Shown: positions 2,871 to 39,442, counted from the first letter of the stretch. The stretch is 42,413 nt of DNA from an uncultured Candidatus Saccharibacteria bacterium (GCA_964556955.1 CAZKXP010000001.1:1-42413), one strand, 5' to 3'. Notes: a model not told the origin generated them from the sequence alone. Translations and numbers: made by a program.

Positions 2871-2966
2871 TTACCTTTATCCTCTTTCTTTGTAAAAACT
2901 TTCCAAACAATATATATTAATTGACGTATATCGTCGAAATTTAAATTTTACAATAAAATAATTAAA

Positions 2967-5075
2967 ATGCTTTTTAAAGAAGTAAAACACGAGTTTGAAA
3001 TCGAAGGTAAGAAATGTACTTTCGAGACAGGTAAGCTAGCCCTGAGATCTGAATCTGCAATACTAGCAAGAATGGGAGATACAGTAATAACTGTAAACGT
3101 TAATACTGCAATTCCAAGAGAGTCTGCAGGATATTTTCCACTTTCAGTAGAATATATAGAAAAATTCTATGCGTCTGGCAAGATCAGTGGATCTAGATTT
3201 GTAAAAAGAGAGAGATTCCCAAGTGATGATGCGGTATTGAAGGCAAGAATGATTGATCGAGCCATAAGGCCAAGATTCCCTAAGGAATACATGAACGAGG
3301 TCAGCGTCATTGTAACAGTCATGTCATATGATGGAGAATGTGATCCTGTACTTCTAGCTATCAATGCTGTATCAGTAGCATTGATGTATTCATCTGCACC
3401 ATTCAATGGTCCTATCGCAGGTGTTCGAATGGGTATGGCAGAGGGTCAACCAAAGAGTATCCTCAAATCAATGGACTTAACATCCCCAGAAGAAAAGATG
3501 AACTATGTCGTAGCTGGTGATGGTGAGACATTCACAATGATCGACGCTGGATGCTATGAAGTTTCTGATGAAGAGATTGTCGGTAGCATGGAAGAATCTT
3601 TGAAATTAATGAAGCCATGGATTGATGCTCAAAATGGGTTCCTCTCTCAGTTAGAGATTAAACCCAAAGAATATCCCAAGCATGAGTTAGCAGAGGAACT
3701 ACTCTCGGGAATTAAAGAATTTTTGGGTGAAGAAAGAATTAAAACAAATCTTGTAAATGCTGATGAGAAAGCTCACGAAGCTACCAAGTCTGAACTGATT
3801 GAAAAATTTGGAGGGACATACAGCAATGCAGATATTGCAGAAGCATATGACTATCTTCAGAAGAAAGCACTTAGGAAGATTGTAGTAGAAGAGAATAAAA
3901 GAGTAGATGGTAGAGGAATTGATGAAATCAGAGAACTATACACAGAGGTAGATTTACTACCAAGAGTACATGGTTCTGCACTATTCACTAGAGGCGTAAC
4001 TCAAACTTTAACTATTGCAACATTGGGAAGTCTTCGAGATGTAAGATTGGTTGATGATATGGAGGGAGAGAGAGAGCAGAGATATATGCATTTTTACAAT
4101 GATTTACCATTCGCATATGGTACTTGTGAGAGAATTAAGTTCTCACCAAGTCGAAGAGCCATTGGTCATGGTATGTTAGCTGAGAAAGCATTAGTACCTG
4201 TAATCCCATCTGAGAAAGAATTCCCATACACCCTTTTGGTGATGAGTGAAATTCAAGGTGAGAATGGATCAAGTTCCATGGCATCTGTCTGTGGATCTAC
4301 AATGTCATTGATGGCGGCAGGGGTTCCAATTAGGAAACTAGTTGCAGGCATTGCTTGTGGGTTGGTTACATCCGAGGATGGAAGCTTCCAAGTACTTACA
4401 GATATGCAAGGTGTTGAAGATTTTTATGGTGATATGGATTTCAAGATTGCAGGAACAGCAGATGGTGTTACTGCTGTGCAGATGGATACCAAGACCCAAG
4501 GCCTATCTATGGATATTGTTAGGCAGACATTTAAACAATCTCATGAAGCAAGATTAAAGATCTTGGAGACAATGAGTCAGACTATTGGTGAAGCTCGAAC
4601 AACTTTGTCCGAATTCGCACCTAGAGTAGCTCAAGAGAAGGTTGCTGTTGATAAGATCGGTGAGATCATTGGGCCAGGAGGAAAGAATATTCGGGAACTT
4701 TCTGAAAGAACTGGGGCAGAGATAGAGATTGAAGAGGATGGTACAGTGAATATCTATGCTACCTCTCAAGCATCAATCGATGAAGCAGTTGCAATTATTA
4801 GAAAGTACGATTTCAAACCAGTAATAGGGGAGATATATGAAGGTAAGGTTGCATCCATAATGCCATATGGTGGATTTGTTGATCTTGCACCTGGAATCTC
4901 TGGATTGGTTCATGTTTCTGAGCTATCAGATGAATTTGTAAAAGATGTTAGAGCATTCATAAATGAGGGAGATATTGTTAAGGTCAAAGTTGTAGGCATA
5001 GACAATATGGGTAAGATCAAACTCAGTATGAAAGGTGTGGATGGTAAGAAGGAAGAAACCACTACTCAAGAGTAG
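2967..5075 (+). CDS. pnp: Polyribonucleotide nucleotidyltransferase (PNPase)
   Basis: 702 aa. Two RNase PH-like halves (GRGIDEIRELY, SRRAIGHG), KH (GPGGKNIRELSERTG) and S1 (GEIYEGKVASIMPYGGFVDL..GLVHVSEL) at the C-terminus. Confidence 0.95.
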   Translation: MLFKEVKHEFEIEGKKCTFETGKLALRSESAILARMGDTVITVNVNTAIPRESAGYFPLSVEYIEKFYASGKISGSRFVKRERFPSDDAVLKARMIDRAIRPRFPKEYMNEVSVIVTVMSYDGECDPVLLAINAVSVALMYSSAPFNGPIAGVRMGMAEGQPKSILKSMDLTSPEEKMNYVVAGDGETFTMIDAGCYEVSDEEIVGSMEESLKLMKPWIDAQNGFLSQLEIKPKEYPKHELAEELLSGIKEFLGEERIKTNLVNADEKAHEATKSELIEKFGGTYSNADIAEAYDYLQKKALRKIVVEENKRVDGRGIDEIRELYTEVDLLPRVHGSALFTRGVTQTLTIATLGSLRDVRLVDDMEGEREQRYMHFYNDLPFAYGTCERIKFSPSRRAIGHGMLAEKALVPVIPSEKEFPYTLLVMSEIQGENGSSSMASVCGSTMSLMAAGVPIRKLVAGIACGLVTSEDGSFQVLTDMQGVEDFYGDMDFKIAGTADGVTAVQMDTKTQGLSMDIVRQTFKQSHEARLKILETMSQTIGEARTTLSEFAPRVAQEKVAVDKIGEIIGPGGKNIRELSERTGAEIEIEEDGTVNIYATSQASIDEAVAIIRKYDFKPVIGEIYEGKVASIMPYGGFVDLAPGISGLVHVSELSDEFVKDVRAFINEGDIVKVKVVGIDNMGKIKLSMKGVDGKKEETTTQE

Positions 5076-5081
5076 CGGTTT

Positions 5082-5876
5082 TTAACTACCTATTACTTTT
5101 TGATTAATTTCCTTTTCGAGGGCGAGTCGTGCCTTTCGGGCTACACCACCTCCTTTTTTAGCGACCTCTTTATTCTCATCGAAAGTTTGGGGCTTTTTTC
5201 TTTGGGAAACCTCTTTTGTAGATGTTTCTGCTAGCATATTCAAGACTAATTCTAGATTTGTCATATGATCTCTCAGATTTTCTTTATTAAGCCCTTTCTT
5301 CTGTTTGAAAGTTTTTACGGACATATCTGACCACGCTTTTGTAATCTCATCTGTTAAAATTGCAAACTCTAGACCCTCCTTTACACCTCTTTCTTTCCAC
5401 TCATCTGTCAATTCTTTTCTGATCTCAATGCTCTTGAGTCTTTGGTTTATCCATTCTTTTGAATACCCTTTCTGAAGATATGTCTTCATTGCTCGATTAA
5501 ATGCTAATTCGGGGTCTTCTGTTTCTTCGATTCTTTCGTATCCAACCTTTGCTAACCAGATTTTAAAGGGTTCTGCTTTCGGAGATGGTATGGACTGAAT
5601 TAACCTAAGTAGTGTCTCCGTGTCTGCAACATCTGTTAAATATGTCTTGCCGTCAGAGGATTCTAGCCTCAGTTGGCGACAATTTGTAGCCAACTGACTT
5701 CCCTCCTGCTTTAGCCTTGTTTTTAGAACACTCCAGTATTTCCTTGGATTTATACTCTCAGTAAGTATCTGGATAATATCTATGATTGAGAAATACCAAA
5801 GCTCTTTCTTCTCATCCCACACCCTTCTAATTTGTTTTTTATTGAATATTGCTATCTTCTTTATATCTTCTTGCAT
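5082..5876 (-). CDS. Bro-N domain / DinD-like (DNA damage-inducible protein D family) protein
   Basis: 264 aa. N-terminal IRRVWDEKKELWYFSIIDIIQILTES..NPRKYWSVLKTRLKQEG resembles Bro-N/antirepressor-type domains. C-terminal KQKKGLNKENLRDHMTNLELVLNMLAETSTKEV resembles the DinD C-terminal region (recalled similarity, no search run). Confidence 0.55.
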   Translation of the reverse strand: MQEDIKKIAIFNKKQIRRVWDEKKELWYFSIIDIIQILTESINPRKYWSVLKTRLKQEGSQLATNCRQLRLESSDGKTYLTDVADTETLLRLIQSIPSPKAEPFKIWLAKVGYERIEETEDPELAFNRAMKTYLQKGYSKEWINQRLKSIEIRKELTDEWKERGVKEGLEFAILTDEITKAWSDMSVKTFKQKKGLNKENLRDHMTNLELVLNMLAETSTKEVSQRKKPQTFDENKEVAKKGGGVARKARLALEKEINQKVIGS

Positions 5877-5931: not shown

Positions 5932-6936
5932 TTAATTCTTCTTTATCTTAGCGATATAGAAACCCATCATCTTGCTGTTAGGAATGATTCTTAAAGTCTT
6001 CTTAACAGCAGGATTGTAATGATGACCACTCCATTTGGTAATACCACCCATCACATTCTTGTTGTTAATCTCTACGCCTAACTCTTCTACACTTGCATTA
6101 GAAAAATGCTCCAAAAGGTGTGTAACTACACCCTCATTCTCTTCAGGTTCTAATGTACATGTAGAGTAGACCATAGTACCGCCCTTCTTTAATGTTCTGA
6201 ATGCAGATACAACAAGATCCTTTTGAAGAAAACTACATCTTCTAATCTTCTCTAGACTCCAAAACCTCAAAGGTTTTTGTCCCTTCATATATATCATCCC
6301 TTCACCACTGCATGGGGCATCTAGAAGTACTCTGTCAAAATATTCTGGATACTTTCTTCCAAATTCAGTAGCATCACTCAATGTAGCTTTTGCGCTTTTT
6401 GCACCGAATTGCTCCAACACATTTCTTAGAGAATTAACTCTGCTTCTATCGGAATCATTTGCCAATATCTTTGCCTTGTTATTTGTTATCGCTGCAATAT
6501 GTGTAGTCTTACTTCCTGGGGCGGCACACATATCAAGAATATTTTCATCTTCTTTCGGATCTAAAACCAAAGTGTCTAGAATACTTGAGAGATTTTGAAT
6601 GTAGAATTTCCCATCTTGATATTCTTGAGTCTGAGATACCTCTGATTTGTCATGGTTTTTAATGAAATATGTATATCTGTCCCATTCAATCGGTTCTAAA
6701 TCATAACCTTTATCTTCGAGAAGTTTTTTAGTCTCTTCTATATCCCCCTTGAGAGGATTCAATCTAATTGTTGTGGTTGCTCTCTGGGAAAATATACCTA
6801 CTACTTTTTGCTTAGGTATCATTAAAATACTAGCGATTCTAGATGCAAATAGGTCTTCTTTGGTAAAGAATCTTTTTTTAGATTCTGGTTGTGGCTTCCT
6901 AGATTTTTTGAAATTACTTCTTGGTGGTTTTCTCAT
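5932..6936 (-). CDS. NOL1/NOP2/Sun-family RNA cytosine-C5 methyltransferase (RsmB/RsmF-like)
   Basis: 334 aa. SAM-MTase and catalytic motifs DMCAAPGSKTT, LLDAPCSGEG, YSTCTL. Start ATG overlaps the rsmE stop by 1 nt on the minus strand. Confidence 0.8.
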   Translation of the reverse strand: MRKPPRSNFKKSRKPQPESKKRFFTKEDLFASRIASILMIPKQKVVGIFSQRATTTIRLNPLKGDIEETKKLLEDKGYDLEPIEWDRYTYFIKNHDKSEVSQTQEYQDGKFYIQNLSSILDTLVLDPKEDENILDMCAAPGSKTTHIAAITNNKAKILANDSDRSRVNSLRNVLEQFGAKSAKATLSDATEFGRKYPEYFDRVLLDAPCSGEGMIYMKGQKPLRFWSLEKIRRCSFLQKDLVVSAFRTLKKGGTMVYSTCTLEPEENEGVVTHLLEHFSNASVEELGVEINNKNVMGGITKWSGHHYNPAVKKTLRIIPNSKMMGFYIAKIKKN

Positions 6937-7664
6937 TAGATATCTCCCTTAATATACTTAATTATACTTCCAATGACTAATCCTGCAGTCTCTGTTCTTA
7001 ATATATTCCCTTTTAATTTGAGAAATGTAAACTCCAATTCCTTAAACACTTCAATATCCGAAGAACTCCACCCCTTTTCAGGACCAATAGCTATATATAC
7101 TGGTTGGTCTGTTATTTGGAGTTCAGAGAGATATTTTGTATCTACATTCTCTGTAGCTAGGCAAAGCTTTAAAGAATTTGGCTCAAAGCTATATTTGGAA
7201 AGACCTTTAATATTTATTGGCTTCTCTACGATAGTAGGAAACTGTGTTCTGGATTGTTCTGTGGCATCTCTGACAATCTTGTTCCAAAGACCGTAGTCTT
7301 TTATTGCTTTGTTTTTGGTCCTTAGGGAATATTTCGCTTCTACTGGAATTATTTTCTCAATACCGATCTCTACACTTTTCTCTAGGAAGTAGTTAAACTT
7401 TGAGTCATTGGATAGGGACTGGATGATGGTGATACTTGGTGTGTATGCTTTTTCTCTTTGTCCTAATATCTCTAATATTTCTATCTCTACAGAGCTTCTT
7501 GATATATCTGTTATTTGTGCCAAATATCTATTCTCATATGTCTCTATCTCTACTACATCTTCGATTTTTGTAATTCCAGACTTAATTAAGAGTTCACTGT
7601 CCGAATCGGAGAGGTGAGCTATGTCTCCTACTGTTAATTTGTGTCTTACAAAATATTTTTGCAT
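6936..7664 (-). CDS. rsmE: 16S rRNA (uracil1498-N3)-methyltransferase RsmE-like
   Basis: 242 aa. SPOUT-type C-terminal motifs IAIGPEKGWS and ILRTETAG, plus ATEQSRTQFP, typical of RsmE. Confidence 0.8.
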   Translation of the reverse strand: MQKYFVRHKLTVGDIAHLSDSDSELLIKSGITKIEDVVEIETYENRYLAQITDISRSSVEIEILEILGQREKAYTPSITIIQSLSNDSKFNYFLEKSVEIGIEKIIPVEAKYSLRTKNKAIKDYGLWNKIVRDATEQSRTQFPTIVEKPINIKGLSKYSFEPNSLKLCLATENVDTKYLSELQITDQPVYIAIGPEKGWSSSDIEVFKELEFTFLKLKGNILRTETAGLVIGSIIKYIKGDI

Positions 7665-7680
7665 GTGGTGATTATACCAC

Positions 7681-7895
7681 GCCAGGCCATGGCCTGGCTT
7701 TGATTCATAGTTTGTTCATAATCACAAAACCTATTACAATGTACAGCCTTCTTGCGTCTCGAATATTTAATAGGTCATTCATTTTCAATATTTTGATGGT
7801 TGGTCTAGTAGAAAAGGGCAGTAGTACAAGGAGATGAGGTGATGAACTAGGTATGAACACAGGCCTGGCTATAGCCTGGCCTGATTGACATATTC
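7681..7895. repeat. Copy A of a 202-bp intergenic repeat bounded by GC-rich palindromes (MITE/PATE-like element or structured regulatory/ncRNA locus)
   Basis: Perfect 18-nt palindrome GCCAGGCCATGGCCTGGC (7681..7698). Near-palindrome AGGCCTGGCTATAGCCTGGCCT (7861..7882). The core aligns collinearly to 23651..23852. Fills the divergent rsmE / 7945-ORF spacer. Confidence 0.75.
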
Positions 7896-7944: not shown

Positions 7945-10900
7945 ATGAATATCAAACTACAAAGAGTGTTAAGGACTGTATCTAAGATCATACTTTTAGT
8001 TGTAGTACTGGGTTTTGTAGTATGGGGTGGTTACTATGTATATCTTTCCATAACCAACAAGCCTCAGAATGTAGTTATTACCAATATCACAGATTCTTCA
8101 GCAACTATTACTTGGACTACACAGTCACAGATGAATGGTGTTGTGTATTACAAGGAGAATGAGAAGACAATATTGCCTGGAATATTGGCATTCTTAGGAT
8201 CTAAGGTAGGGTATGATGACAGAGATGCGAGTGATGCTCAGACTGCTTGTGTAGATGAGTTTAACAAGAAGGCGGGGGAAGAGGTAGATGCAGAATTTAA
8301 TGTTAGTGGAGAGGACTTTGATTGTGAGGGTGCGAAGGTTACTGGTATGGGTAAGTACTATACACATAGTGTAACTATGACTAACCTTAAACCAGAGACT
8401 AAGTATTCTTTTGTAGTAGGTGATGGTATATGGAGTTTTAGGAGTGATGTAACTATGGTTACTACTTTTGATACTTTGGAGGAGGTTGATACTCCTATGC
8501 CTGTTTTTGGAAGAATTATTGGAGATGATGATACATACTCTAGAGATTCTTTGGTATATATTACTTTTAGGGATGGTAGTGAGGAACAGGATAGTATTGT
8601 TTACAGTAGTACTGGTAATGATGATGGAGGATGGTATTTAGATGCAGCTACAGCTAGGGATAGTAGTGGGGATGTTTTGGAGTTGGAGTTAACGAATGAT
8701 ACTTTTTTAGTAAAGGGTAGATACAGTAATTATGGAGAGAGTGAGGAAGAGAGATATATCTTAGGTTATTTTAATGGTGCATATCCTGATATTGTTATTG
8801 AAAAATCAACATCAACACAATCTTCTTTATGGAACAAGTTTGTACTTGGGGCGTATGCGCAATCTCGTAAGTCTTCGCTTGAGGTAAAAACGGAAAATAT
8901 TGTTGCAGCCTGTCCAAAATGTGCGACTTCGTTAACTACAAATGAATTATATACCATAGCTTCAGGTGGAACTTTATCTCCGGGTAGGGTTAAGGAAGTT
9001 GGTACTGGAAATATTGCTAAGGCAGTAGCTGCGACTCAAGGGGGGAGTTTCGCCATGAGTGATCTTTCTAAGTTAGGTCTCAGCCAAAATGCAGGGAATA
9101 TGAATGCACTTGTATCTAATACTAGCTATGAGACATTTAAGGTTGGAAGTACTACTCAAACAAATCAGACAATAAAGTATTCTTCTGGTGGGAGTGTTAC
9201 AAGTACAAGCTATACAACATCTTCAACATATGGATCTTCAACTACGACTTGTACAACAGATAGGAATTGTAAGACATTATCCAATTCGTCAGAAGCTCCT
9301 GGAGGATGTGCTTATGGAACAAATGTAGATGGAAGTTGTAAAACAATCGATCTAGGAGATGGTACTGTAATTCAAGAGGATGCGGAACTTTTATCAGGGA
9401 TTGGTTTCATGTATACATGTGTTGCAGATGGAAGTAAGGTTAGTAACCCTAATGATTGTGGTAAAAACGGTTTCGTGTACACATGTGTTGCAGATGGGGG
9501 TAAAGTTAGGGATCCTAATGATTGTGGTAAAAACGGTTATATGTACACATGTGTTGCAAATGGCAAGAAAGTCGTAGATCCTAAGAACTGCCCAAGCGCA
9601 ATGGATAAAGAAGTAAAGGAAGAAAAATGTAGTGTAACCGCAAATTATGATAAAGAAGGAGCTTTGCTGACATGTGGAATGTCTTGTGAGAATGGTAAAT
9701 CCATAGTAGTTGGTTCTACCAAATGTACTTCTGTTGCCCCGAGCGTAGAAAAACAGATAGATCCAAGCGTTGATGGTGCTGCTCAATCCGTAGGAACAGA
9801 TGTGTCAGTATTTTCCGTAGATCCTTGGAAACTAACCTCTGTACAAATTAAGATATTAATAGATGAGTCTCCACAATTACGAGAAGAGGCCACTAATGAG
9901 ATGAACAATATTGAGGCAAAAGAAGGTGCGTGGACTAATTCTGAAAAAAAGTCCTACAGGAATATTTGTAATGCTACAGGGGGGAATCTCTCTGTAGAAG
10001 AGTACAATTCAAAGTGGGAAATAGCTTCTTATACCTGCTCATATGATAATTCCCAAAACTGGATATCTGTTGATAAAGCTTTTGCGGAAGAGTTGTCATC
10101 ATCTGAATTGACGTATGCCTTGTATTTGCCAGAGTATGGTTTATACAGTTTCGAGTTAGGAGATGAATACACAATAACTACGAATTCTGACAGTAGCAAA
10201 TCAACTTATATATTCTACATAGAAGCCAACGGTCAGTCAGGCTTCCAAATGCCAGCTGATCCAGATAATCCAACATCAGAAGAAGACATCATATTGGATT
10301 CTAGTGCATACGAAATAACATACTCACAAGAATCAACAGCCCAACAATATGAAATTGAAAAAGGAATTAACCTACTATCCTTTAACTTTGTACCAGTATC
10401 TCCAGATGACTTAGGAGCATACATGGCATCTGATCTCATAACTCAAGCAGCAAACAATGGAGTAAACATAGAATATATATCAATATTTAGTGGAGGAAGA
10501 TGGTATTCAGGATACTCATGCTCAAGTGGAACATGTACAGGTACAAACTTTAGTATAGTACCAGGTAAAGGATATGTAGTTAAAACAAGTAACAGTGGAA
10601 CTATAACTATCCCAGGATACAACCTAACCTCCTCAGTACCCATACCATTTTCTTCAGGATGGAACCTAGTAGGAGTACATGGATATACTACAGCATATAC
10701 AGCTAGAACCCTCATAGATTCAATCAATACAGTAGAAGGCTTAACAGCTAACAATGTATCATGGTGGCCAACCTCTAAAGGTAAGTATGAAGGATTACAA
10801 TTTGAAAACAATACAGAATATGGGTTAGACTTCTCCATAAGTCCAACCAATGGATACTTTGTAAGAATATCTGACTATGCACCTCAAGACACAACCTGTA

Positions 10901-10959
10901 AATCTTTGCTTTGGAATGTAGGAGGAAGTGCCAATGGGGCTTGTGGTAATACAAAATAA
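7945..10959 (+). CDS. Large membrane-anchored surface protein with an FN3 module, Ser/Thr-rich and Cys-rich regions; function unknown
   Basis: 1004 aa. N-terminal hydrophobic anchor IILLVVVLGFVVWGGYYVYL. ITNITDSSATITWTT ... YYTHSVTMTNLKPETKYSFVVGDG is the FN3 / purple-acid-phosphatase-N-like pattern. Has a 3 x 22-aa Cys repeat. C-terminal duplication: GINLLSF..GKGYVVKTS / GWNLVGV..TNGYFVRIS. Confidence 0.85.
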   Translation: MNIKLQRVLRTVSKIILLVVVLGFVVWGGYYVYLSITNKPQNVVITNITDSSATITWTTQSQMNGVVYYKENEKTILPGILAFLGSKVGYDDRDASDAQTACVDEFNKKAGEEVDAEFNVSGEDFDCEGAKVTGMGKYYTHSVTMTNLKPETKYSFVVGDGIWSFRSDVTMVTTFDTLEEVDTPMPVFGRIIGDDDTYSRDSLVYITFRDGSEEQDSIVYSSTGNDDGGWYLDAATARDSSGDVLELELTNDTFLVKGRYSNYGESEEERYILGYFNGAYPDIVIEKSTSTQSSLWNKFVLGAYAQSRKSSLEVKTENIVAACPKCATSLTTNELYTIASGGTLSPGRVKEVGTGNIAKAVAATQGGSFAMSDLSKLGLSQNAGNMNALVSNTSYETFKVGSTTQTNQTIKYSSGGSVTSTSYTTSSTYGSSTTTCTTDRNCKTLSNSSEAPGGCAYGTNVDGSCKTIDLGDGTVIQEDAELLSGIGFMYTCVADGSKVSNPNDCGKNGFVYTCVADGGKVRDPNDCGKNGYMYTCVANGKKVVDPKNCPSAMDKEVKEEKCSVTANYDKEGALLTCGMSCENGKSIVVGSTKCTSVAPSVEKQIDPSVDGAAQSVGTDVSVFSVDPWKLTSVQIKILIDESPQLREEATNEMNNIEAKEGAWTNSEKKSYRNICNATGGNLSVEEYNSKWEIASYTCSYDNSQNWISVDKAFAEELSSSELTYALYLPEYGLYSFELGDEYTITTNSDSSKSTYIFYIEANGQSGFQMPADPDNPTSEEDIILDSSAYEITYSQESTAQQYEIEKGINLLSFNFVPVSPDDLGAYMASDLITQAANNGVNIEYISIFSGGRWYSGYSCSSGTCTGTNFSIVPGKGYVVKTSNSGTITIPGYNLTSSVPIPFSSGWNLVGVHGYTTAYTARTLIDSINTVEGLTANNVSWWPTSKGKYEGLQFENNTEYGLDFSISPTNGYFVRISDYAPQDTTCKSLLWNVGGSANGACGNTK
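9403..9600 (+). repeat. In-frame tandem repeat, 3 x 66 bp, inside the 1004-aa ORF
   Basis: GFMYTCVADGSKVSNPNDCGKN (9403..9468), GFVYTCVADGGKVRDPNDCGKN (9469..9534), GYMYTCVANGKKVVDPKNCPSA (9535..9600). Two Cys per unit. Confidence 0.9.
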
Positions 10960-10981
10960 TTAAGTTAAAAATATTTTTAAA

Positions 10982-11317
10982 ATGGAAACAATACCACCAA
11001 TATTTTGGATGATAGTAGTGAGTGTATTAACTGTAATGGTCTCTTTAATACTTTATTATGTAGCAATGTTAATAAAGGAAACTAGAACAACAGTTGTTGA
11101 TGCTCGCGAAACAATGAAACAAGCAAATAAAATACTCACACAAGCAGAATTAATAGTGAATGATGTACAAAGTAGCATATCTACCATAAGAGGGACTGTG
11201 GAAGAAATAAATCAAAGTATCTTAGCACCAATAAGGAGATTAGCTAGTGGCGTAATAGCAGTTTCATCTTTCGTAAATGGTTTTAAGAAGAAAAAAGAAG
11301 AGGAAACCGAAGAATAA
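10982..11317 (+). CDS. Small single-pass membrane protein with a coiled-coil tail (DUF948-like)
   Basis: 111 aa. TM segment IFWMIVVSVLTVMVSLILYYVAMLI, then a helical region and a KKKKEEETEE tail. The DUF948 resemblance is from memory of the family pattern. Confidence 0.7.
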   Translation: METIPPIFWMIVVSVLTVMVSLILYYVAMLIKETRTTVVDARETMKQANKILTQAELIVNDVQSSISTIRGTVEEINQSILAPIRRLASGVIAVSSFVNGFKKKKEEETEE

Positions 11318-11356
11318 CATTGTAAATATCGCTATTACTAGCTATTATAGTAATTA

Positions 11357-12919
11357 ATGAAGATTGCCCGCGTACCAACTCAAAAAAGAAATATCATAAT
11401 CATTGTAATACTCCTAGTAGGCCTTCCTCTCTTGGTATATGCATCTATGCAGGTTGTTCAACTCATATCCAATGCTAGTGCGGATACACAACCTCGTAAT
11501 GTAACTATGTCCAATATTACAACAGTATCTGCAACCGTTACTTGGACCACAGATTCAAAGGCAAAAGGTAGTGTTACACTAAAGGAAAATGGCGCAGAAC
11601 TTAGCCCCGTAATAGATACAAGAGGGGATTCAAAAAGATATACTCACTTTATTGAATTAACAGATTTAGAACCTGCTACCACATACACATTCACAATTAC
11701 TTCTGGGAGTACGAATTACACCTCTTCCGGAGAGTCTTCCTTTGTATTTGAAACTGCACCCATAACTGCAGATACACCAACACCAAATCCAATCTACGGA
11801 AATGTAAGCGGGGTATCGGGAGATGATATATTGATATTTGCAATACTAAAAGACAAAACCTCATATGCAGTCTCTGCTACTATGCCAAGTGGTGGAAATT
11901 GGATTATGGATCTATCTACATTCAGAAAAATATCTGATGGATCATTGATAATTTCAGATTCAAATACCAATCTAGTATTAGTTGCAATTACCGGTACGAA
12001 CCAAGGGGCTGTTCTAAACGGCTCGTTCTCGACCCTATTTGATAGTAATGGGAAGTTGAATAGTACACAGATATTCAGCATAGGGACCAATACATCCTTG
12101 TACTCATATTTCCCAACGGGAGGTAGTATAGTAGATGAGACTCCTGTGGTAGAAGAACCGGAAGAAGAGCCAGAAGAAGAGGATACCGATGGAAAAACTT
12201 ATCGTATTGTTAAAGATCTGGAATGGGAAGATATGGTAGTGTCGGGTGTATATTCTTGGCCATATGGAGAAGATACTGTTCGAGTTACTAATCTGACAGA
12301 TACCGGTTTTACAGTAGTATGGGTATCACAAGAGAAAGAACAAGGTAGATTGAACTATGGTACTTCTGCATCTGAGCTTTCTAGTAGTGCAAACGATGAT
12401 AGGGATGGAGTTACAAACCGTGGAGACTACTATGTGCATAGCGTGTCTTTAACTAGATTACAACCAGAGACTAAGTATTACTTCGAGGTAGTTTCTGGAG
12501 AAAATACATACGATGGTTTTGATGCTACAACATTTGCAACTCTTAGTACCCCCCCCTCTTATGTATCTATTACTGGTTCTGTAGACAATATGCCTGATAC
12601 AAATGAAGGTGTTTTGATGGGGTATATACGAGATGTAGATGGTACGGGGACATTAGGAGATTCTCTCCCTATATCTACTTTGTTGGATGACAATGGGGGA
12701 TGGATACTTTCTATCGCAGATAGTAGATCTTCTGATGGAAGCAAGTATTATGAATATACTTCTTCAGATAGTATGTACTTTGAAGTAGTTTCAACTATAC
12801 CTTCCATATATACAACTTCTGTATCTATGAATGGTATTACCAGTAAGGATATTGATATTACTTTAGAGTATAGTACGAGTACTGTGGTTAGGAAGCTATC
12901 AGACTATGGTGTTATTTAA
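11357..12919 (+). CDS. Membrane-anchored protein with two FN3 + beta-rich modules; function unknown
   Basis: 520 aa. Anchor IIIIVILLVGLPLLVYA. FN3-1: NVTMSNITTVSATVTWTT..RYTHFIELTDLEPATTYTFTITSG. FN3-2: VRVTNLTDTGFTVVWVS..YYVHSVSLTRLQPETKYYFEVVSG. Acidic linker EEPEEEPEEED between the modules. Confidence 0.85.
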   Translation: MKIARVPTQKRNIIIIVILLVGLPLLVYASMQVVQLISNASADTQPRNVTMSNITTVSATVTWTTDSKAKGSVTLKENGAELSPVIDTRGDSKRYTHFIELTDLEPATTYTFTITSGSTNYTSSGESSFVFETAPITADTPTPNPIYGNVSGVSGDDILIFAILKDKTSYAVSATMPSGGNWIMDLSTFRKISDGSLIISDSNTNLVLVAITGTNQGAVLNGSFSTLFDSNGKLNSTQIFSIGTNTSLYSYFPTGGSIVDETPVVEEPEEEPEEEDTDGKTYRIVKDLEWEDMVVSGVYSWPYGEDTVRVTNLTDTGFTVVWVSQEKEQGRLNYGTSASELSSSANDDRDGVTNRGDYYVHSVSLTRLQPETKYYFEVVSGENTYDGFDATTFATLSTPPSYVSITGSVDNMPDTNEGVLMGYIRDVDGTGTLGDSLPISTLLDDNGGWILSIADSRSSDGSKYYEYTSSDSMYFEVVSTIPSIYTTSVSMNGITSKDIDITLEYSTSTVVRKLSDYGVI

Positions 12920-12946
12920 TTTGTCGGTAGAAAAGCTTAGAATATT

Positions 12947-12955
12947 TGATATAAT
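12947..12955 (+). promoter_or_regulatory. Possible internal extended -10 promoter element upstream of the 426-aa ORF
   Basis: TGATATAAT (TGn + TATAAT 12950..12955). The -35 is poor (GTAGAA). Followed by one of the few SD-like motifs in the window (GGAG 12957..12960). Confidence 0.3.
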
Positions 12956-12966
12956 CGGAGATTATT

Positions 12967-14247
12967 ATGAATGACCAATATTATCAGAAGAAGAATAACA
13001 AGAAGGCGTTTTTACTACTATTAGTATTGGGGGGTGTAGGGTTTTTAGGATTCAAATTTTCTAATGTAGAGGAAACAGTTGCAGACTTCTCAAAAGATAC
13101 TGAAGAATCTTCGTGTAGTAGTTGTAATGGTATTGTAGATAATAGCTATGAGGATAATGAGGCGGTATTCATTAATCTTCTTGATGAAGAGAGTGATACA
13201 CCGAGTGTGCAGGGTATTGGAACTCTGTTGAAGTGTTTAGAAGCAAAAAACACATATACTGCTGATTCTGCTTGTACTATTCCATTAAGCACAGGAACAG
13301 TAAGCTTACAGGGATGGGTTAGTTCCACTGCAGATATAAAGTTGGTTAGCATGATGGTTCCGATAATACCTCTTTCAGGCAGTTATGAAGTTGAGAGTAA
13401 CATTAGGAAAATTTCGGAGAAGACGGGTAACTATGGTGTCAAACCCGCTGGTGCTCAGTTTGATGATAAACAATGGCGCTACAACGCAACACCTGGTGAG
13501 GGAGTTGAGTCTCTAGGGGAAAGAATCTTGAGTGCAATCCAAAAGAAAGCATTTGGGGTCAAATATACCGTGTCTACAGAAGCCGAAGAGGGGGATGGAG
13601 AGGCGAGTATTTCGGAGTATGCACCTAATAATGGCGGAGAGGAATTTAACAATCCAGAGAATATTAATCCAGATAAATCTAATCGTATTGCAGATTGGCT
13701 GAAAGATATCTATTACGATTATCCTGGGGAGGTAGATGTGGAAGATAATGAATCAATAAAGATTGAAGGAGTTTGTGAAGGTATAGAGGAGGTAGAGATT
13801 GATAGCAATTCGGAAACACAATGTTTCAATGTTTGGAATGCACTTGTGAATACTTTTGGATCATTATTCCCATCTTCGGATTGGGCTAGTTGTAATGCGA
13901 AAGAAGAAGATGGAGGTTGTATAAAATCTGAGGATATCGTTGTAAAAATGAGTCCAATGTTTGAAGAAACGAACAATTTTATGTTGAAAAGAAACAAGAC
14001 AGCGATGGACCCAGAGACTGCATTGTCATATCAGCCACACTATATCATTACGAAATGTACAGCTGATGTCTCTGGAAAGCTTGTTGATGTTAAGTGTCTC
14101 TGGGATATGACATATATATTTGAAGAAAGAAAAGCTGCAGAGTATGATGATGCAGGTGGGTCAGATACACCATCTGAATATAAGTATATTAAGTATCTAA
14201 AAGAGGAGAGTATAAGGCGTACAGATACTTTACCTTATGGCTCGTAA
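12967..14247 (+). CDS. Membrane-anchored acidic, Cys-containing extracytoplasmic protein; function unknown
   Basis: 426 aa. N-terminal KKNNKK followed by hydrophobic AFLLLLVLGGVGFLGFKF. I recognise no family motif. Confidence 0.8.
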   Translation: MNDQYYQKKNNKKAFLLLLVLGGVGFLGFKFSNVEETVADFSKDTEESSCSSCNGIVDNSYEDNEAVFINLLDEESDTPSVQGIGTLLKCLEAKNTYTADSACTIPLSTGTVSLQGWVSSTADIKLVSMMVPIIPLSGSYEVESNIRKISEKTGNYGVKPAGAQFDDKQWRYNATPGEGVESLGERILSAIQKKAFGVKYTVSTEAEEGDGEASISEYAPNNGGEEFNNPENINPDKSNRIADWLKDIYYDYPGEVDVEDNESIKIEGVCEGIEEVEIDSNSETQCFNVWNALVNTFGSLFPSSDWASCNAKEEDGGCIKSEDIVVKMSPMFEETNNFMLKRNKTAMDPETALSYQPHYIITKCTADVSGKLVDVKCLWDMTYIFEERKAAEYDDAGGSDTPSEYKYIKYLKEESIRRTDTLPYGS

Positions 14248-14269
14248 TTTAAATTAAATAAATATTAAT

Positions 14270-15757
14270 ATGAGTTTTGTTGAAAAAGCTTACAATCATG
14301 GATTAAAGGTTGTGAAAATTTTTAATTCAAAAATTTTTCACTTCTTCTTAATATTCTTTGGGGCTTTGGCCTTAATTTTTGGTGTAATGAATGTATATGC
14401 GCAAGAAGAAACATTACGCATCTCTCCTGATTTCCCTGGGAATAAAGCAGTGTATAATACAGCGAGTGGTGTTGATCCAGACCAAGACAATACAACGAGT
14501 TATGGCGGGACCTCTCTATTAAATACCTCTTGGGTTACGGCAATATCACTTGCACCTTCATTGACTGAGGGTGGAGATGCTGTGTTAAACAACGCTGATA
14601 TCCCTAATGATATGAAGTATGGGCTATTAGGAATCACAGATAGTGCATGGGCAGGAATATATAGAAATACTCCAAGCGTAGATTTAATCGCACACTTAGG
14701 AAATGAATGGGTCCCTGGTTATGATGAATCTTCATATGGGACTTATGCAGATGATGGTGCTAATGTAAGTGGTTACCAAAGCCTAATAGACTCGGGTATC
14801 GCACCTCTCTGGACTCAGTTTAGAAATATGTCGTATGTATTCTTAGTAATAATAATGTTGGTTATTGGATTTATGATTATGTTTAGAAGTAAGATAGGAG
14901 GTCAATTGATGGTCTCCGTTGGTAATACAATTCCTAGTGTCATAGTAAGTCTAATCCTAATAACTTTCAGTTTTGCAATTGCAGGATTAATTATTGATAT
15001 TGGAGGGATTTTGGTTTCCCTCTTGTATTCAATATTTGAGCAGAAAAGCATTTCTATTCAAAATTTTGGAGCTTTGTTTGATGTTTTGTTTAGAGGAGTC
15101 TCTGTAACTGATTATTTTGAAGTGGTAGGTAATGATTTTACGAATGCTTTCAATGGCTTCTCAACAAGTATTGGATCAGGCTTATTGTTATGGATGAAGG
15201 CTGTCTTCCAAACAACAGTCTTTGGAGTTGTTGGTATGATTATGTTTGTGGTAGGGCTTGGTGTTGTTGCTGTAGGCGCAATAAAACTACTTATAGTTTT
15301 GTATAAGACATATTTTGAATTAATTCTAAATGTAATACTTGCTCCATTTAAAATTTTAATGGGTACAATCCCAGGCAAGGATGTTGTAAGAACAAACTGG
15401 ATTACAAGTTTGATGAGAAATGTCCTCATATTCCCAATGGTGTATTTTATTGTAAATATTCCAATATATTTATCTTCAGTTCTAGGAGAAGACAATGTTG
15501 TACTTGGATTTCCATCTAAATTAACTGGCGCAAATCTAGGAGATACAGGATTGGACATATCTACAGGAGAAGGGTATATAGGGTTATTGATAAATTTCGT
15601 ACTAAGAGTGTTCGTTTTGTATTATGCAGCACAAGCACCTAAGTTTGCTGAAGCAATCATTCCTCCTTTGGAAGTTAATAAGGCAGCTGCAGATGCAATG
15701 GCAAATGCGAAGATGAGTCTATCAAAAGCACCATTTGTAGGAGGATTGTTTAAATAG
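14270..15757 (+). CDS. Polytopic integral membrane protein with signal peptide and about 150-aa extracytoplasmic N-domain; function unknown
   Basis: 495 aa. FFLIFFGALALIFGVMNVYAQEE looks like a cleavable signal. At least five or six long hydrophobic segments from about residue 190 (e.g. YVFLVIIMLVIGFMIMF, VIVSLILITFSFAIAGLIIDIGGILVSLLY, VFGVVGMIMFVVGLGVVAVGAIKLLIVL). Confidence 0.85.
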   Translation: MSFVEKAYNHGLKVVKIFNSKIFHFFLIFFGALALIFGVMNVYAQEETLRISPDFPGNKAVYNTASGVDPDQDNTTSYGGTSLLNTSWVTAISLAPSLTEGGDAVLNNADIPNDMKYGLLGITDSAWAGIYRNTPSVDLIAHLGNEWVPGYDESSYGTYADDGANVSGYQSLIDSGIAPLWTQFRNMSYVFLVIIMLVIGFMIMFRSKIGGQLMVSVGNTIPSVIVSLILITFSFAIAGLIIDIGGILVSLLYSIFEQKSISIQNFGALFDVLFRGVSVTDYFEVVGNDFTNAFNGFSTSIGSGLLLWMKAVFQTTVFGVVGMIMFVVGLGVVAVGAIKLLIVLYKTYFELILNVILAPFKILMGTIPGKDVVRTNWITSLMRNVLIFPMVYFIVNIPIYLSSVLGEDNVVLGFPSKLTGANLGDTGLDISTGEGYIGLLINFVLRVFVLYYAAQAPKFAEAIIPPLEVNKAAADAMANAKMSLSKAPFVGGLFK

Positions 15758-15777
15758 ATAAATTGCTAATGTAATCT

Positions 15778-18468: not shown

Positions 18469-18488
18469 TTTATACAAAATGATTATCT

Positions 18489-19460
18489 ATGGAAAAAAAG
18501 AAAATACTGTTGGTAGGGATAATCATAATAGTAGCAATAGTAACAGCTGTAGCTATATATTTCATAATTAAAAATCAAAACAAAGATACCTCAACAAATA
18601 CAGTACAACAAGAATCCCTAAGTTTTTCAAATCAAAAGATCGAATTAGGTGATGTGAATGTAAAAGAAAAAGAAGCCTTGATATACACAATCTCTTCTTC
18701 TGTCTCTTTGTCAAAAGTAGAAAGTTTTGTAAAAAACACAGATCCTGAAATGAAGATTGGGACCCAAGAAGAAGGAAACTACTACAGATGGAAAAACGGC
18801 GAAGATTCAGTAATTTACACATTAGATCAAAACTACTTAATATTTAACTTTACCGAAGGCATACCTTGGAATGAAAGCTCGTTGACAGCATACTCTTTTA
18901 CGCAGTTCGTAGAAAAATACTTTGAAAAGCAATGGACATACACGCTTACACATAGCCAGAAGGGTGACTCTGGGGAGACAATATACTATGCCACTAGGAA
19001 AATTGGCGATGTAAATATGGAAACGGTCTTCGATAGGCAACAGACAGATTATCTTGCGATGAAGAATGGTGAAGTAATATATGGGAAGATATTGCTTGTT
19101 GATATACTTGACGATCCCAAAGTGCTACCTTTAATATCAACAAGTTTACTTGAAGATTACATCAACCTTTCTACATACCCCAAAGAAATATATCCCATAT
19201 ATGGCTCTACCCAAAGTACAATCCTCTCGGAGATAGATTACAAAAGTGAAGAATTTGAAGATATTGCAAATACTCTTTCAAACTGCAAAAGCAACTCTGC
19301 AAGCCTAGCCTATCTCTACAAGCGTATGGACCAGGGAGATCTAACCCCTGTGTATAAACTAGATCTAACATGCGAGATTACCTATCAAAAAACACAATAT
19401 GATATCCCTGCCATAGGGTATATTAATGCGATAGATCCTGAATATATATCCACGGAGTAA
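18489..19460 (+). CDS. Membrane-anchored extracytoplasmic protein; function unknown
   Basis: 323 aa. N-terminal anchor ILLVGIIIIVAIVTAVAIYFII. No recognisable motif. Confidence 0.8.
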   Translation: MEKKKILLVGIIIIVAIVTAVAIYFIIKNQNKDTSTNTVQQESLSFSNQKIELGDVNVKEKEALIYTISSSVSLSKVESFVKNTDPEMKIGTQEEGNYYRWKNGEDSVIYTLDQNYLIFNFTEGIPWNESSLTAYSFTQFVEKYFEKQWTYTLTHSQKGDSGETIYYATRKIGDVNMETVFDRQQTDYLAMKNGEVIYGKILLVDILDDPKVLPLISTSLLEDYINLSTYPKEIYPIYGSTQSTILSEIDYKSEEFEDIANTLSNCKSNSASLAYLYKRMDQGDLTPVYKLDLTCEITYQKTQYDIPAIGYINAIDPEYISTE

Positions 19461-19483
19461 ATATCTGTGCTACAATCATTTGT

Positions 19484-20656
19484 ATGAAAACAGCCCTCAA
19501 ATTAATAGTATTTGCATTAATATGTTTCTTCCCTTACGAGGTATTTGCATACACCATAAATACAATATCAGACCAGAATTTTGACACATCAATCTCTGAT
19601 CAAACCAACGTAGAATACAAGACACCCAATGTAATATACATATCCCAGATAACCACTAGCTCTCCACAACTATCGGACAATCCATCTCTTTGGGTCAAGA
19701 CTCTCTACTACTACAGCATTACTAGATTACATTTTGCAGATATCCCATTCAACTTCCTTGTAGATAGTAGTGGGAAAATATATGAAGGTAAAAGTGGAGG
19801 CATAGGGGCGAACCCAGAAATAGAAAATGACACAGGAAGTATATTAATTGGATATCTCTCTAACAATCCAATACTCTCCAATAGAGCATCATCAACAATA
19901 TACGAATTAGTAGATACCATCTCTTCGCAATACGGTATACAAAGTATCCAAGCAAAAAGCCTTAAAATATCCTCACCAGAAGGACAACTTGCAAAATTCC
20001 AGGTATCTGATGCCGCAGGAGATTTTAACCAATCAGTATCGGAAATATTCCAAGATTGGCAAGGATATACGACAAGTAATCTCTCCTACAAAGCCAAAAT
20101 CGAGGATGTTGCCTACGAACCAGAAGTAAGTATCGGCTCACGATTACACATCTCTGTAAAAGTAACAAACATGAATGATTTTGCATGGCTAACTGATGTA
20201 CATCCAATATATATATCTACAGCAGATGGTAATGATTCAGGTTTTGCAATCAATGGAGTATGGGATAGTTTTAGCAAACCAACCCATATTGAAAACAAGG
20301 CTGTAAAACCAGGAGAGAGTGTAACATTAGAATTTGATCTCTTCGCGAGGACTACCCCTGGAGAAGCAGCGCAGAGTTTTGTTCTTGCTAGAAACAATGA
20401 AACCATATTTGCTGATTCTTCCTTCGAATTAAAATTTAATATTGTTAAGGGCGACAAAACATTGGTACAGGTAGCCTCATCTGAATATGGTTTTGCAAAT
20501 ATTAGAAATTGCCAATGGTATAGTTGTAAAATATTAGATAGCGTAGATAACGGAACAGTATTCATATTGTTAAGTGAAGAGAATGGATGGATGCAGATAC
20601 AGTACAGCGAAGATACTGTCGGATGGGTATTCTCTAGGTATATGAAGAAGATATAA
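19484..20656 (+). CDS. Secreted cell-wall-binding protein: amidase_2/PGRP-like (apparently degenerate) + Ig-like + SH3b
   Basis: 390 aa. Signal peptide MKTALKLIVFALICFFPYEVFAYT. DIPFNFLVDSSGKIYEGKSGG...GSILIGYLSNN resembles the amidase_2 core, but no His/Cys zinc-ligand motifs are seen. C-terminal GFANIRN..VDNGTVFILLSEENGWMQIQYSEDTVGWVFSRYM is SH3b-like. Confidence 0.75.
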   Translation: MKTALKLIVFALICFFPYEVFAYTINTISDQNFDTSISDQTNVEYKTPNVIYISQITTSSPQLSDNPSLWVKTLYYYSITRLHFADIPFNFLVDSSGKIYEGKSGGIGANPEIENDTGSILIGYLSNNPILSNRASSTIYELVDTISSQYGIQSIQAKSLKISSPEGQLAKFQVSDAAGDFNQSVSEIFQDWQGYTTSNLSYKAKIEDVAYEPEVSIGSRLHISVKVTNMNDFAWLTDVHPIYISTADGNDSGFAINGVWDSFSKPTHIENKAVKPGESVTLEFDLFARTTPGEAAQSFVLARNNETIFADSSFELKFNIVKGDKTLVQVASSEYGFANIRNCQWYSCKILDSVDNGTVFILLSEENGWMQIQYSEDTVGWVFSRYMKKI

Positions 20657-22683: not shown

Positions 22684-23643
22684 CTAGTTGGTATTGGATG
22701 ATAGCCAGCTCAGTTCTCCATATGTCTCAACGTATCTCTTGTATGCCGCAGGCCACATATATTTGGGATTAGCCCCTGCTCTTAATTTTTGTAAAGTCCT
22801 TTTAATTTGAAGCTTGCCATCAAAAATATTGTCACTTGGAAATTGCTTGTACCATTGGCATGGAGACCATTGGAATAGTCCTTTGTAAAAAGAGTGTTTA
22901 TCACTTTCTGCATTACATCCTGATTCTAAGCGCATAGTAAATTTTAACCATTGTTTTTCTTCGTCTGTAGCAGAGACATCACTGTCAATATATGCCTCCC
23001 AGTACCCACAATTGTATCCAATTTGTTCTACAGAATCAGGAGAATCATTAGGGCCTGATAACAGGAGAATTTCTTTTCGTGGGGAAGAAATAATCTCCTC
23101 ATCGATGAGCTTTGTAGAAACTAGGCTGTTTCCCACATATACCTTTTCAATTGTTTGTGTTGCTACACCAAGCACTCCTTTTTGTAAGGTAATCTTTGTC
23201 CCTAGACTTTCACAAAGGGACCCACCTTCTACAATCTTTTCGTATGGTATTGAGATATTAATATTTTCTAGAACTGTTCGGTATGTGTTTAGGACAATAA
23301 TGGAATCATCTAACAAAGTATCTGCGGGAGAGTTTGTGTCAATTCTTTTCTCCTCGTCTAGTGCATAACCATTGGACAGAAGAGCTTCTTCAGGATTCTT
23401 AGCTCTGGTTATGAAATGCTCAACATCACCATCATTATTTACAGTTATGAATTTGATATCAAGCAATTTCTTCTCCTCTGTTATATCAATACCAAAGACC
23501 TTTTGGGTCCAGGTGTCATCTAAGACATCGGTGATGGGAGATAGGTATTGCCTATCTAAAAAATTCATCAAAAGAAAGACCAGAATTCCAACTACAAGAC
23601 CAGATATTTTAGCTTTGTTCATATGTAATCCATATTTTACCAT
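22684..23643 (-). CDS. Membrane-anchored DUF348-like + G5 + SLT-type lytic transglycosylase
   Basis: 319 aa. Anchor ISGLVVGILVFLLMNFL. G5-like ITLQKGVLGVATQTIEKVYVGNSLVSTKLIDEEIISSPRKEILLLSG. SLT motifs MRLESGCNAES (catalytic E-S) and YKGLFQW. Confidence 0.75.
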   Translation of the reverse strand: MVKYGLHMNKAKISGLVVGILVFLLMNFLDRQYLSPITDVLDDTWTQKVFGIDITEEKKLLDIKFITVNNDGDVEHFITRAKNPEEALLSNGYALDEEKRIDTNSPADTLLDDSIIVLNTYRTVLENINISIPYEKIVEGGSLCESLGTKITLQKGVLGVATQTIEKVYVGNSLVSTKLIDEEIISSPRKEILLLSGPNDSPDSVEQIGYNCGYWEAYIDSDVSATDEEKQWLKFTMRLESGCNAESDKHSFYKGLFQWSPCQWYKQFPSDNIFDGKLQIKRTLQKLRAGANPKYMWPAAYKRYVETYGELSWLSSNTN

Positions 23644-23650
23644 ACATAAA

Positions 23651-23866
23651 GCCTGGCTATGGCTTGGCCTTGTGTCACAGGTTGTTCATAACTATAAATC
23701 TTCGTGTCATTTACTACCTCTCTGCGTATCGGATATTTAATAGTTTGTTCATTCGCGACAACCAGTAGGTTGGTCTAGTAGAAAACAACGGTAGTACAAG
23801 CGAGAAGGTACATTAACTAGTTCTGAACCCAAGCCTGGCTATGGCCAGGCCTGGTATGGTATATTC
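23651..23866. repeat. Copy B of the 202-bp hairpin-bounded intergenic repeat
   Basis: GCCTGGCTATGGCTTGGC (23651..23668, imperfect hairpin) and AAGCCTGGCTATGGCCAGGCCT (23831..23852, 7-bp stem GCCTGGC/GCCAGGC). Same orientation and same 202-bp length as 7681..7882. Fills the divergent spacer between 23643 and 23872. Confidence 0.75.
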
Positions 23867-23871
23867 AAAAT

Positions 23872-38755: not shown

Positions 38756-38826
38756 TGGACGCTTCGCTGAGCAGTATATCCTTCTATTATGCACACTATT
38801 TGGGATTTTAATAGCCGGGATTAAAA

Positions 38827-39318
38827 CTATAATGTTTGAAATTCATCTGTGCTTTGATCTAGAATCCTTCTCGCTAGGTAGTTTTTGAGCAGAAAACGAT
38901 TGTCATATAGCCAAGGGTATTTTTCGAAATCTATAGATTTTAATTTCTTCGGATTGTTTACAATATAAGCATATGTGAGGATCATGGAATCTCTTCCAAT
39001 AACCCATTTCCTATGGTATGTACCTTGAAACAGATGCCCAGAAAGCCCGTATTTCGTATTGAAATATTTTGCGTATGCAGAATTGATGATGTGCATACCT
39101 CGACTTATCGTTTGATCACCCGTCTGAGAGGCAAGAATATGGTAATGGTTTGGCATTATACAAAAACAAAAGAGCTCGTAATTTCTAACGTTAAAGATAT
39201 CTTTAATTAGCGAATATAAATAATCGTAGTCTTTTTTACATTTTCCGATAACACATCTGCGATTACCTCGGTTATAAATATGGTAAATTCTATTTTTCTT
39301 TGGTGCTTTATATGCCAT
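38827..39318 (-). CDS. IS200/IS605-family Y1 (HUH) transposase / REP-associated tyrosine transposase-like protein
   Basis: 163 aa. YHIYNRGNRR, IMPNHYHIL (HUH motif), GHLFQGTYH, AYIVNNP (Tyr region), the pattern of COG1943 / Y1_Tnp proteins. Confidence 0.8.
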   Translation of the reverse strand: MAYKAPKKNRIYHIYNRGNRRCVIGKCKKDYDYLYSLIKDIFNVRNYELFCFCIMPNHYHILASQTGDQTISRGMHIINSAYAKYFNTKYGLSGHLFQGTYHRKWVIGRDSMILTYAYIVNNPKKLKSIDFEKYPWLYDNRFLLKNYLARRILDQSTDEFQTL

Positions 39319-39409: not shown

Positions 39410-39442
39410 GTAAAGATATTTATATAAGCGAAGCGTCGAAAT

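Follow-up and report, generated by a model that had tools for sequence, protein, structure and literature searches.

BIMEs are enterobacterial pairs of REP units with defined linker motifs, which usually lie at gene 3′ ends or in convergent or co-directional spacers and bind IHF, gyrase or Pol I. The classical bacterial MITEs include Correia/NEMIS, RUP and ERIC-like imperfect palindromes, whereas the palindrome-associated transposable elements (PATEs) are non-autonomous derivatives of IS200/IS605. REPIN-RAYT systems have been described mainly in Proteobacteria. The genomes of the CPR are tiny and gene-dense, and a literature search did not turn up any interspersed repeat family described from them. 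The features of REPINs that served for comparison here are two inverted REP palindromes, folding of the whole element as a hairpin, the occurrence of singlet remnants, and a RAYT encoded in the genome (PMC3337134); in P. fluorescens, the REPIN spacer is reported to measure 34-110 bp (Bertels & Rainey; PMC3337134, PMC3116915, PMC5581495).

The stretch of DNA analyzed here in its entirety (42,413 nucleotides, "the window") contains two copies of a repeat of ~204 bp, which is probably a non-autonomous, non-coding mobile DNA element of the REPIN/PATE/MITE kind from a lineage of Candidatus Dojkabacteria (CPR). The element is polymorphic for insertion, occurs at several loci and in both orientations, has a solo remnant, shows neither a coding nor an RNA-family signal, and has the promoters of its neighbors outside its ends. 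Judging from its RsmE homologues, the organism belongs to Candidatus Dojkabacteria (CPR/Patescibacteria); an exact-protein look-up of two window proteins returned no record.

Copies, ends and core of the element

Both copies lie between divergent genes, as the initial annotation had stated, namely, RsmE and a 1004-aa protein at locus A, and a G5 and a TPR protein at locus B:

7680..7883, plus strand: element copy A, ~204 bp, delimited (±3 nt) by the gapless alignment with copy B and by comparing filled with empty sites; inserted between the promoters of rsmE and of the gene for the 1004-aa membrane protein
6936-7664, minus strand: RsmE gene, left divergent neighbor of copy A
start 7945, plus strand: gene for a 1004-aa membrane-anchored fn3/Pur_ac_phosph_N protein, right divergent neighbor of copy A
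23650..23853, plus strand: element copy B, ~204 bp, situated between the G5-domain gene (minus strand) and the TPR membrane protein gene (plus strand)
ATG 23872, plus strand: TPR membrane protein gene, to the right of copy B, followed by EF-G and a ribosomal protein operon

Position 7945 also opens a series of large membrane-anchored proteins, most of them unannotated (1004, 520, 426, 495, 896, 323 and 390 aa; window 7945-20656), in which fn3/Pur_ac_phosph_N, Peptidase_M23 (below the Pfam cutoff) and SH3_3 are the only recognizable domains. This series is syntenic in two related contigs (L015 and L016, see below) and may be a conserved cell-surface gene cluster.

Copies A and B have the same orientation and align without gaps. 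Their identity was 67.4% over 215 nt at offset 0 (window 7681-7895 vs 23651-23865) and did not exceed 33% at any other offset within ±30; over 200 aligned columns, it was 70%. The two same-orientation copies of ~70% identity described previously were thus recovered, with a length of ~204 bp. With a two-sequence nhmmer profile, each copy scored E ~1e-72, and there was no other match in the window. The 18-mer GGTTGGTCTAGTAGAAAA, already singled out as a conserved block, occurs exactly twice in the window, at 7798 and 23768 (0.04 expected), and GTAGTACAAG, ATATTTAATAG and TTGTTCATAA are further blocks common to both copies. The similarity had also been thought to reach ATATTC (7890-7895 / 23861-23866). 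This motif is flanking DNA: because it is also found in relatives without the element, it belongs to the promoter flank.

The GC-rich palindromes noted at the ends proved to be of the form GCCWGGC-N4-GCCWGGC:

7681..7698: left terminal palindrome of copy A, GCCAGGC-CATG-GCCTGGC, a perfect 18-mer; the hairpin was also flagged by a promoter/terminator-type scan
7863..7880: right terminal palindrome of copy A, GCCTGGC-TATA-GCCTGGC, with a mismatch at the central W
23651..23668: left terminal palindrome of copy B, GCCTGGC-TATG-GCTTGGC, with one heptamer degenerate (GCCTGGC in strain L013)
23833..23850: right terminal palindrome of copy B, GCCTGGC-TATG-GCCAGGC, a perfect hairpin

All seven GCCWGGC sites of the 42-kb window are located within the two copies (1.6 expected; 0 of 100 shuffles reached seven). 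Avoidance of restriction sites was considered and rejected, since the rest of the window shows no depletion of CCWGG or GGCC. When the copies described below were included, the palindrome was present at both ends in five of five copies, and the distance from palindrome start to palindrome start was 182, 182, 182, 181 and 182 nt, although independent copies have diverged by ~30%. Past the palindromes, the inverted repeat continues inward for ~10 nt (TTGnGTYCA). Each end therefore consists of a GC-rich palindrome of 18-20 bp plus ~10 nt of inverted repeat, the interior comprises 164 bp, and the two ends can pair as a long hairpin. In line with this architecture, the element aligns from end to end with its own reverse complement (copy A, E 1e-12), and full-length folds pair the two ends. 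The central W of the heptamers (A or T) and the N4 loop vary freely between copies.

Conservation of the core is uneven. Invariant columns were clustered beyond chance, both in a runs test (p = 0.002) and by window variance (p = 0.001), and near the apex there is a stretch of ~12 nt in which every column varies. Together, the fixed length and the unevenly conserved core hint that more is at work than a selfish element decaying neutrally; if length and some blocks are under constraint, this could be for the sake of the transposition machinery or of a host function.

Filled, empty, inverted and solo sites

The comparison of empty sites and insertion contexts, which the initial annotation had put forward as a check, was made for both loci. 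Locus A was empty in all relatives compared: in nine contigs (L004-L012; RsmE 78-86% identical), the spacer between the same genes measures ~80 bp, vs 280 bp in the window, and in a tenth related contig it measures 41 bp (from the gene table alone). The junctions read as follows:

Window, filled: GATTATACCA[CGCCAGG...GGCCTG]ATTGACATAT
L004, empty: GATTATACCA-TTA-TTTGACATAT
L008, empty: GATTATACCA-TTATA-TTTGACATAT
L005, empty: GATTATACCA-TGATA-TTTGACATAT

No palindrome remnant was present at locus A in L004-L012. Between filled and empty sites, no duplicated bases, that is, no target-site duplication, were found, and 3-5 nt of the old spacer differ. A single insertion in the lineage of the window explains these alignments with far greater parsimony than losses, of which at least three, each of them precise, would be needed. 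Elsewhere in the window, a gene for a 264-aa Bro-N/DinD-like (phage-type) protein (5082-5876, minus strand) is located between those for PNPase and RsmB; because the latter two are directly adjacent in L005, it looks like another lineage-specific insertion.

The element is not confined to these two loci. A scan of JGI metagenomes for a strict three-block pattern common to all known copies returned at least one further copy, from another metagenome (L017; Ga0172371_10062577, 2962-3178), which is 84% identical to copy B. Its locus is unrelated to A and B, but again the element lies between divergent genes, one for a 409-aa membrane protein (minus strand) and another gene (plus strand). At least four independent copies are thus known. 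No further copy was present in ~60 kb of additional Dojkabacteria loci, a BLASTN search of phage and plasmid collections gave no match, and the three-block pattern returned nothing from IMG/VR. The palindrome pattern did occur in IMG/VR, but only on contigs of 60-68% GC without flanking similarity, and these matches were considered chance. The same applies to a scan of GTDB species representatives with the 18-mer: among the matches listed were Sphingobacterium, Pseudogracilibacillus and Sarcina, in which only the 18-mer region matches.

At locus B, three different states were encountered. Two Logan contigs (L013 and L014) from a strain with a 99% identical TPR protein carry the same copy B in the same orientation as the window, with five differences inside the element and 43 over 3592 nt overall. 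The five differences (23661, 23664, 23681, 23693 and 23695, compared with L013) are all in the left arm of copy B; owing to one of them, the degenerate heptamer is a perfect GCCTGGC in L013, and none is in the right arm or in the conserved core blocks. In L015 (GCA_964403155.1; TPR 70% identical), the element occupies the same G5/TPR spacer but is inverted (nhmmer, minus strand, E 7e-41). In L016 (TPR 68% identical), finally, the spacer measures 78 bp and contains one palindrome, GGTCAAGCTATAGCCAGGTC (9954-9975), which is decayed in both heptamers and aligns exactly with the right palindrome of the inverted L015 copy.

Among the TPR proteins, those of L015 and L016 share 81% identity, and each is about 70% identical to that of the window; as L015 and L016 are each other's closest, the tree is ((L015, L016), window). 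The two terminal palindromes repeat each other in direct as well as in inverted orientation. Recombination or slippage between the two can therefore either flip the core or remove it so that one palindrome is left, and such inversion or deletion accounts for all three states of locus B. The informative sites of the element itself offer a different explanation: 11 of them group the L015 copy with copy A, and copy B with L017, whereas the alternative groupings are backed by four and three sites, so that locus B may also have been occupied independently by different subfamilies.

Both orientations within one spacer also call to mind an invertible promoter switch (inverton), in which a site-specific recombinase flips the core, resulting in phase variation of the flanking surface-protein genes. 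The core is indeed bounded by inverted repeats, and the neighbors are envelope proteins; the two orientations in the G5/TPR spacer, though, belong to different species (window/L013/L014 vs L015), and in L013 and L014 the element is oriented as in the window. Furthermore, no promoter was predicted inside the element, each flanking gene has retained a promoter of its own beyond the repeat, the window proteins scanned included no invertase or recombinase, and the empty sites at locus A show insertion rather than a resident switch. An inverton is, thus, highly improbable.

A mobile element, by contrast, had been proposed from the outset as one reading (MITE/PATE- or BIME-like), and it draws its support from filled vs empty sites, from the copy at a third locus unrelated to the others, and from the inverted copy and the single palindrome left over in L016. 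This series of filled, empty, inverted and solo sites indicates that palindrome-ended elements still operate in CPR genomes.

Flanking promoters, RNA and coding potential

The short distances to the neighboring genes had led to the view that their promoters lie inside, and are supplied by, the element. The signals recognized by consensus are the following:

7671..7679, minus strand: extended −10 box TGGTATAAT of rsmE, 6 nt upstream of the ATG (7664); function predicted from the consensus; unchanged in empty-site relatives
7885..7890, plus strand: TTGACA (−35-like) of the rightward gene at locus A; part of the flank and not of the element; kept in empty-site relatives
23634..23642, minus strand: extended −10 box TGGTAAAAT of the G5-domain gene, the likely start of which is 23622 (312-aa gene call in L013)
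23857..23865, plus strand: extended −10 box TGGTATATT of the TPR gene, 6 nt upstream of the ATG (23872); kept in L015 and in the element-less L016

The extended −10 boxes (TGnTAnAAT) face outward, 0-15 nt beyond the ends of the element, and the L017 copy is likewise bracketed by such boxes (TGGTATAAT and TGGTAGAAT). On the rsmE side and the TTGACA side of copy A, and on the TPR side of copy B, the signals predate the element, as they are present in relatives without a full element. Inside copies A and B, a consensus scan predicted no sigma-70-type promoter, and a hand-found candidate in copy A (TTGTTC-N17-TACAAT) was discarded, as it is not conserved in the other copies. Because the flanking boxes lie outside and pre-exist in relatives without the full element, the earlier view that the element supplies the promoters is not borne out. 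The crowding at copy B was also overstated. Instead of the 7 and 5 nt said to separate it from the flanking start codons, the G5 gene has its start at the equivalent of 23622 in the 99% identical strain and not at 23643, and on the right side the flank keeps its own TGGTATATT box, read at 23857-23865.

TGnTAnAAT is located exactly 6 nt before the ATG of rsmE, of the TPR gene and of the gene to the right of the L017 element (window 7664-7679 and 23857-23874; L015 9985-10003; L017 ~3180-3195). A gap of 6 nt from the −10 box to the ATG is the geometry of leaderless mRNA. As predicted from these boxes, this spacing suggests that the respective mRNAs are leaderless and, given several such genes, that leaderless mRNAs are common in this lineage of Dojkabacteria. 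The narrow gap between back-to-back leaderless promoters would then be a place that tolerates such elements.

With the boxes outside, the GC-rich palindrome occupies the place where a −35 hexamer would normally stand, which bears on a further explanation. The element could be a regulatory cassette selected by the host, its palindromes being operators for a dimeric DNA-binding protein over the −35 regions of two outward promoters, perhaps with DNA looping; it would co-regulate divergent, mostly envelope genes, and its spread would rewire a regulon. The palindromes do lie 0-15 nt upstream of extended −10 boxes, on the left side of copy A and on both sides of copy B and the L015 and L017 copies. 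The free A/T flip of the central W fits recognition of double-stranded DNA rather than a hairpin, the length is near-constant with conserved blocks unevenly spread over the core, and several neighbors, including the L017 ORFs, are membrane or surface proteins. On the other hand, rsmE, which encodes a housekeeping rRNA methyltransferase, is among the flanked genes, relatives carry the same gene pairs with palindrome-free spacers of 80 bp, and no candidate regulator was found. Moreover, the solo palindrome of L016 has decayed in both heptamers and is therefore not maintained as an operator. On balance, a regulatory cassette is unlikely.

The other reading entertained in the initial annotation was a structured regulatory or non-coding RNA locus, albeit of no known family. 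The latter part holds: in the whole window, there was no Rfam 15 match at the gathering score, and at E ≤ 10 both spacers gave only chance matches to snoRNAs/sRNAs (16-22 bits). ARAGORN found no tRNA or tmRNA. The RNA locus itself could be a gene of ~200 nt forming a long irregular hairpin (6S-like or of a new class) that is incidentally mobile or duplicated. At full length, copies A and B fold more stably than shuffled sequence, with plus-strand z-scores of −3.2 and −3.6 and minus-strand z-scores of −2.2 and −2.8. In the consensus long hairpin, ~90% of cells pair, and nine pairs change on both sides, vs 6.1 in shuffles, 36 of 500 of which reach nine (with few sequences aligned). However, the 150-nt core has no folding advantage over shuffled sequence (plus strand, z −0.2 to −0.4; minus strand, +0.5 to +0.8 in three of four copies and −0.2 in L017), so that the full-length signal stems from the ends (~30 nt), that is, from the terminal inverted repeats only. 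In addition, the MFE structures of the core differ from copy to copy, the RNAalifold covariation term was unfavorable on both strands, and the covariation measures were equaled or exceeded by 30-119 of 500 shuffles; the excess of G-U over A-C pairs (30 vs 8) was not used because the structure was predicted with G-U allowed, which renders the argument circular. As there is also no conserved internal promoter or terminator, the flanking promoters point away, and close relatives have no element at the same locus while another has it inverted, a structured RNA gene is very unlikely.

A small protein was rejected as well: the plus-strand frame of 40-60 codons has stops that differ between copies and shows no third-position excess. 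Variable sites amounted to 14/34, 17/33 and 17/33 at codon positions 1, 2 and 3, respectively, that is, without codon periodicity. The non-coding element accounts for the exceptional length of two intergenic spacers, and predictions of promoters or non-coding RNAs in these MAGs should be made with it masked.

The RAYT-like transposase and the known element classes

As a mobile element, it would enter the short spacer that separates back-to-back promoters, disrupting nothing and leaving no detectable target-site duplication. It would move by single-strand, hairpin-based transposition of the IS200/IS605-PATE or REP/REPIN type, and recombination or slippage between the terminal palindromes would either flip the core or remove it, with one palindrome left behind. 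Catalysis might, purely as a hypothesis, be provided in trans by a transposase encoded 15 kb away:

38827..39318, minus strand: gene for a RAYT-like Y1 (HUH) transposase, 163 aa, single copy, antisense between secY and adk within the ribosomal-protein gene cluster

The product matches Pfam Y1_Tnp (E 1.9e-10) and contains the HUH motif NHYHIL. Its best NCBIfam model is the REP-associated tyrosine transposase, at 42 bits vs a cutoff of 80 and covering profile positions 7-137 of 146. An AlphaFold (AF2) model of the protein (pLDDT 91) had its best fold match in the PDB with 4ER8, the RAYT-REP hairpin complex of E. coli (TM 0.66), while TnpA of IS200/IS605 scored ~0.5. Orthologs (P0238 and P0239, 69-72% identical) adjoin secY on every related contig examined, with adk opposite wherever the contig extends; because of this synteny, the gene is regarded as single-copy and vertically inherited, which are properties of RAYTs (PMC5581495).

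Hairpin ends and the lack of a target duplication make a link between this protein and the element attractive. Beside the Y1 gene or its orthologs, however, none of the 13 loci contained GCCWGGC palindromes, so that the usual sign of a REP-RAYT pair, a RAYT flanked by its own REPs, is absent, although some RAYT groups are also without abundant flanking repeats (PMC5581495). Instead, the Y1 gene is flanked by a distinct, conserved 10-bp inverted repeat (GACGCTTNGC/GCNAAGCGTC) in 13 of 13 loci, which occurs nowhere else in the DNA examined; in the window, it is perfect (GACGCTTCGC/GCGAAGCGTC; 38758-38767 and 39428-39437). That the RAYT-like protein moves the element is, hence, a tentative and rather doubtful hypothesis, and the gene is considered a candidate trans-acting mobilizer only.

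The most far-reaching reading would combine both into a REPIN-RAYT-type system in the CPR, consisting of the transposase between secY and adk and an unusually long, length-locked REPIN of ~204 bp, the ends of which double as −35-region modules for leaderless extended −10 promoters and the orientation and presence of which are reshuffled by recombination between palindromes. We regard this combination as conceivable but unlikely. If the link to the RAYT were true, REPIN-RAYT biology would extend to a very different lineage, which would offer a compact system for studying hairpin-based transposition; if the element and the transposase were indeed a REPIN-RAYT pair, they would represent a vertically maintained, possibly host-beneficial replicator in a streamlined genome of roughly 1 Mb.

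How, then, does the element compare with the known classes? With BIMEs, it shares the mosaic of two palindromic units and a conserved linker; unlike BIMEs, which it does not resemble in sequence, it has all its copies between divergent promoters. It resembles classical MITEs in its size (100-300 bp), its terminal inverted repeats, its non-coding and intergenic nature, its presence/absence polymorphism, its occurrence at several loci and its location, often beside promoters, but differs from them in that there is no target-site duplication, no parent DDE-type IS was found, and each terminus is itself palindromic. Moreover, high copy number is a hallmark of MITEs and REPINs, with tens to hundreds of extragenic copies per genome for the latter, whereas the known number is very small here: at least four independent copies, two of them in the 42-kb window.

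Closer is the likeness to PATEs: these, too, are small non-coding elements that end in hairpin-forming palindromes on either side and cause no target-site duplication; a member of the Y1 HUH family is likewise present in the genome. PATEs insert 3′ of a fixed tetra- or pentanucleotide target that adjoins one end. The four insertion sites of the element appear to share no such target: the sequences adjacent to the ends differ among copies A, B, L015 and L017; the T(A/T)TACCA shared near the ends is the neighboring −10 box, at a variable distance of 1-12 nt. Unlike in PATEs, the ends of the element are true inverted repeats of each other over ~30 nt. Neither in the window nor in the ~215 kb of loci examined was an IS200/IS605 copy or another autonomous parent with matching ends present.

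In architecture, the element comes nearest to REPINs: as in these, two short, GC-rich, imperfect palindromes in inverted orientation terminate a non-coding extragenic element that folds as one hairpin (PMC3337134, PMC3116915, PMC5581495). The orientation-marking central base of the palindrome, the single decayed palindrome as a remnant, and the single-copy, vertically inherited RAYT-like Y1 transposase in the same genome add to this resemblance. In contrast to REPINs, whose spacer is short and, hairpin potential aside, poorly conserved, the spacer here is 164 bp long, of near-fixed length and with conserved sequence blocks, its core shows no excess folding energy, the flanks of the RAYT-like gene are without the palindromes of the element, and the host is an AT-rich member of the CPR. 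Because it differs from each of these classes, the element is described as working like a REPIN, PATE or MITE but is filed under none of them; the element is new, yet the class to which it is akin is well known and, in that respect, fairly ordinary.
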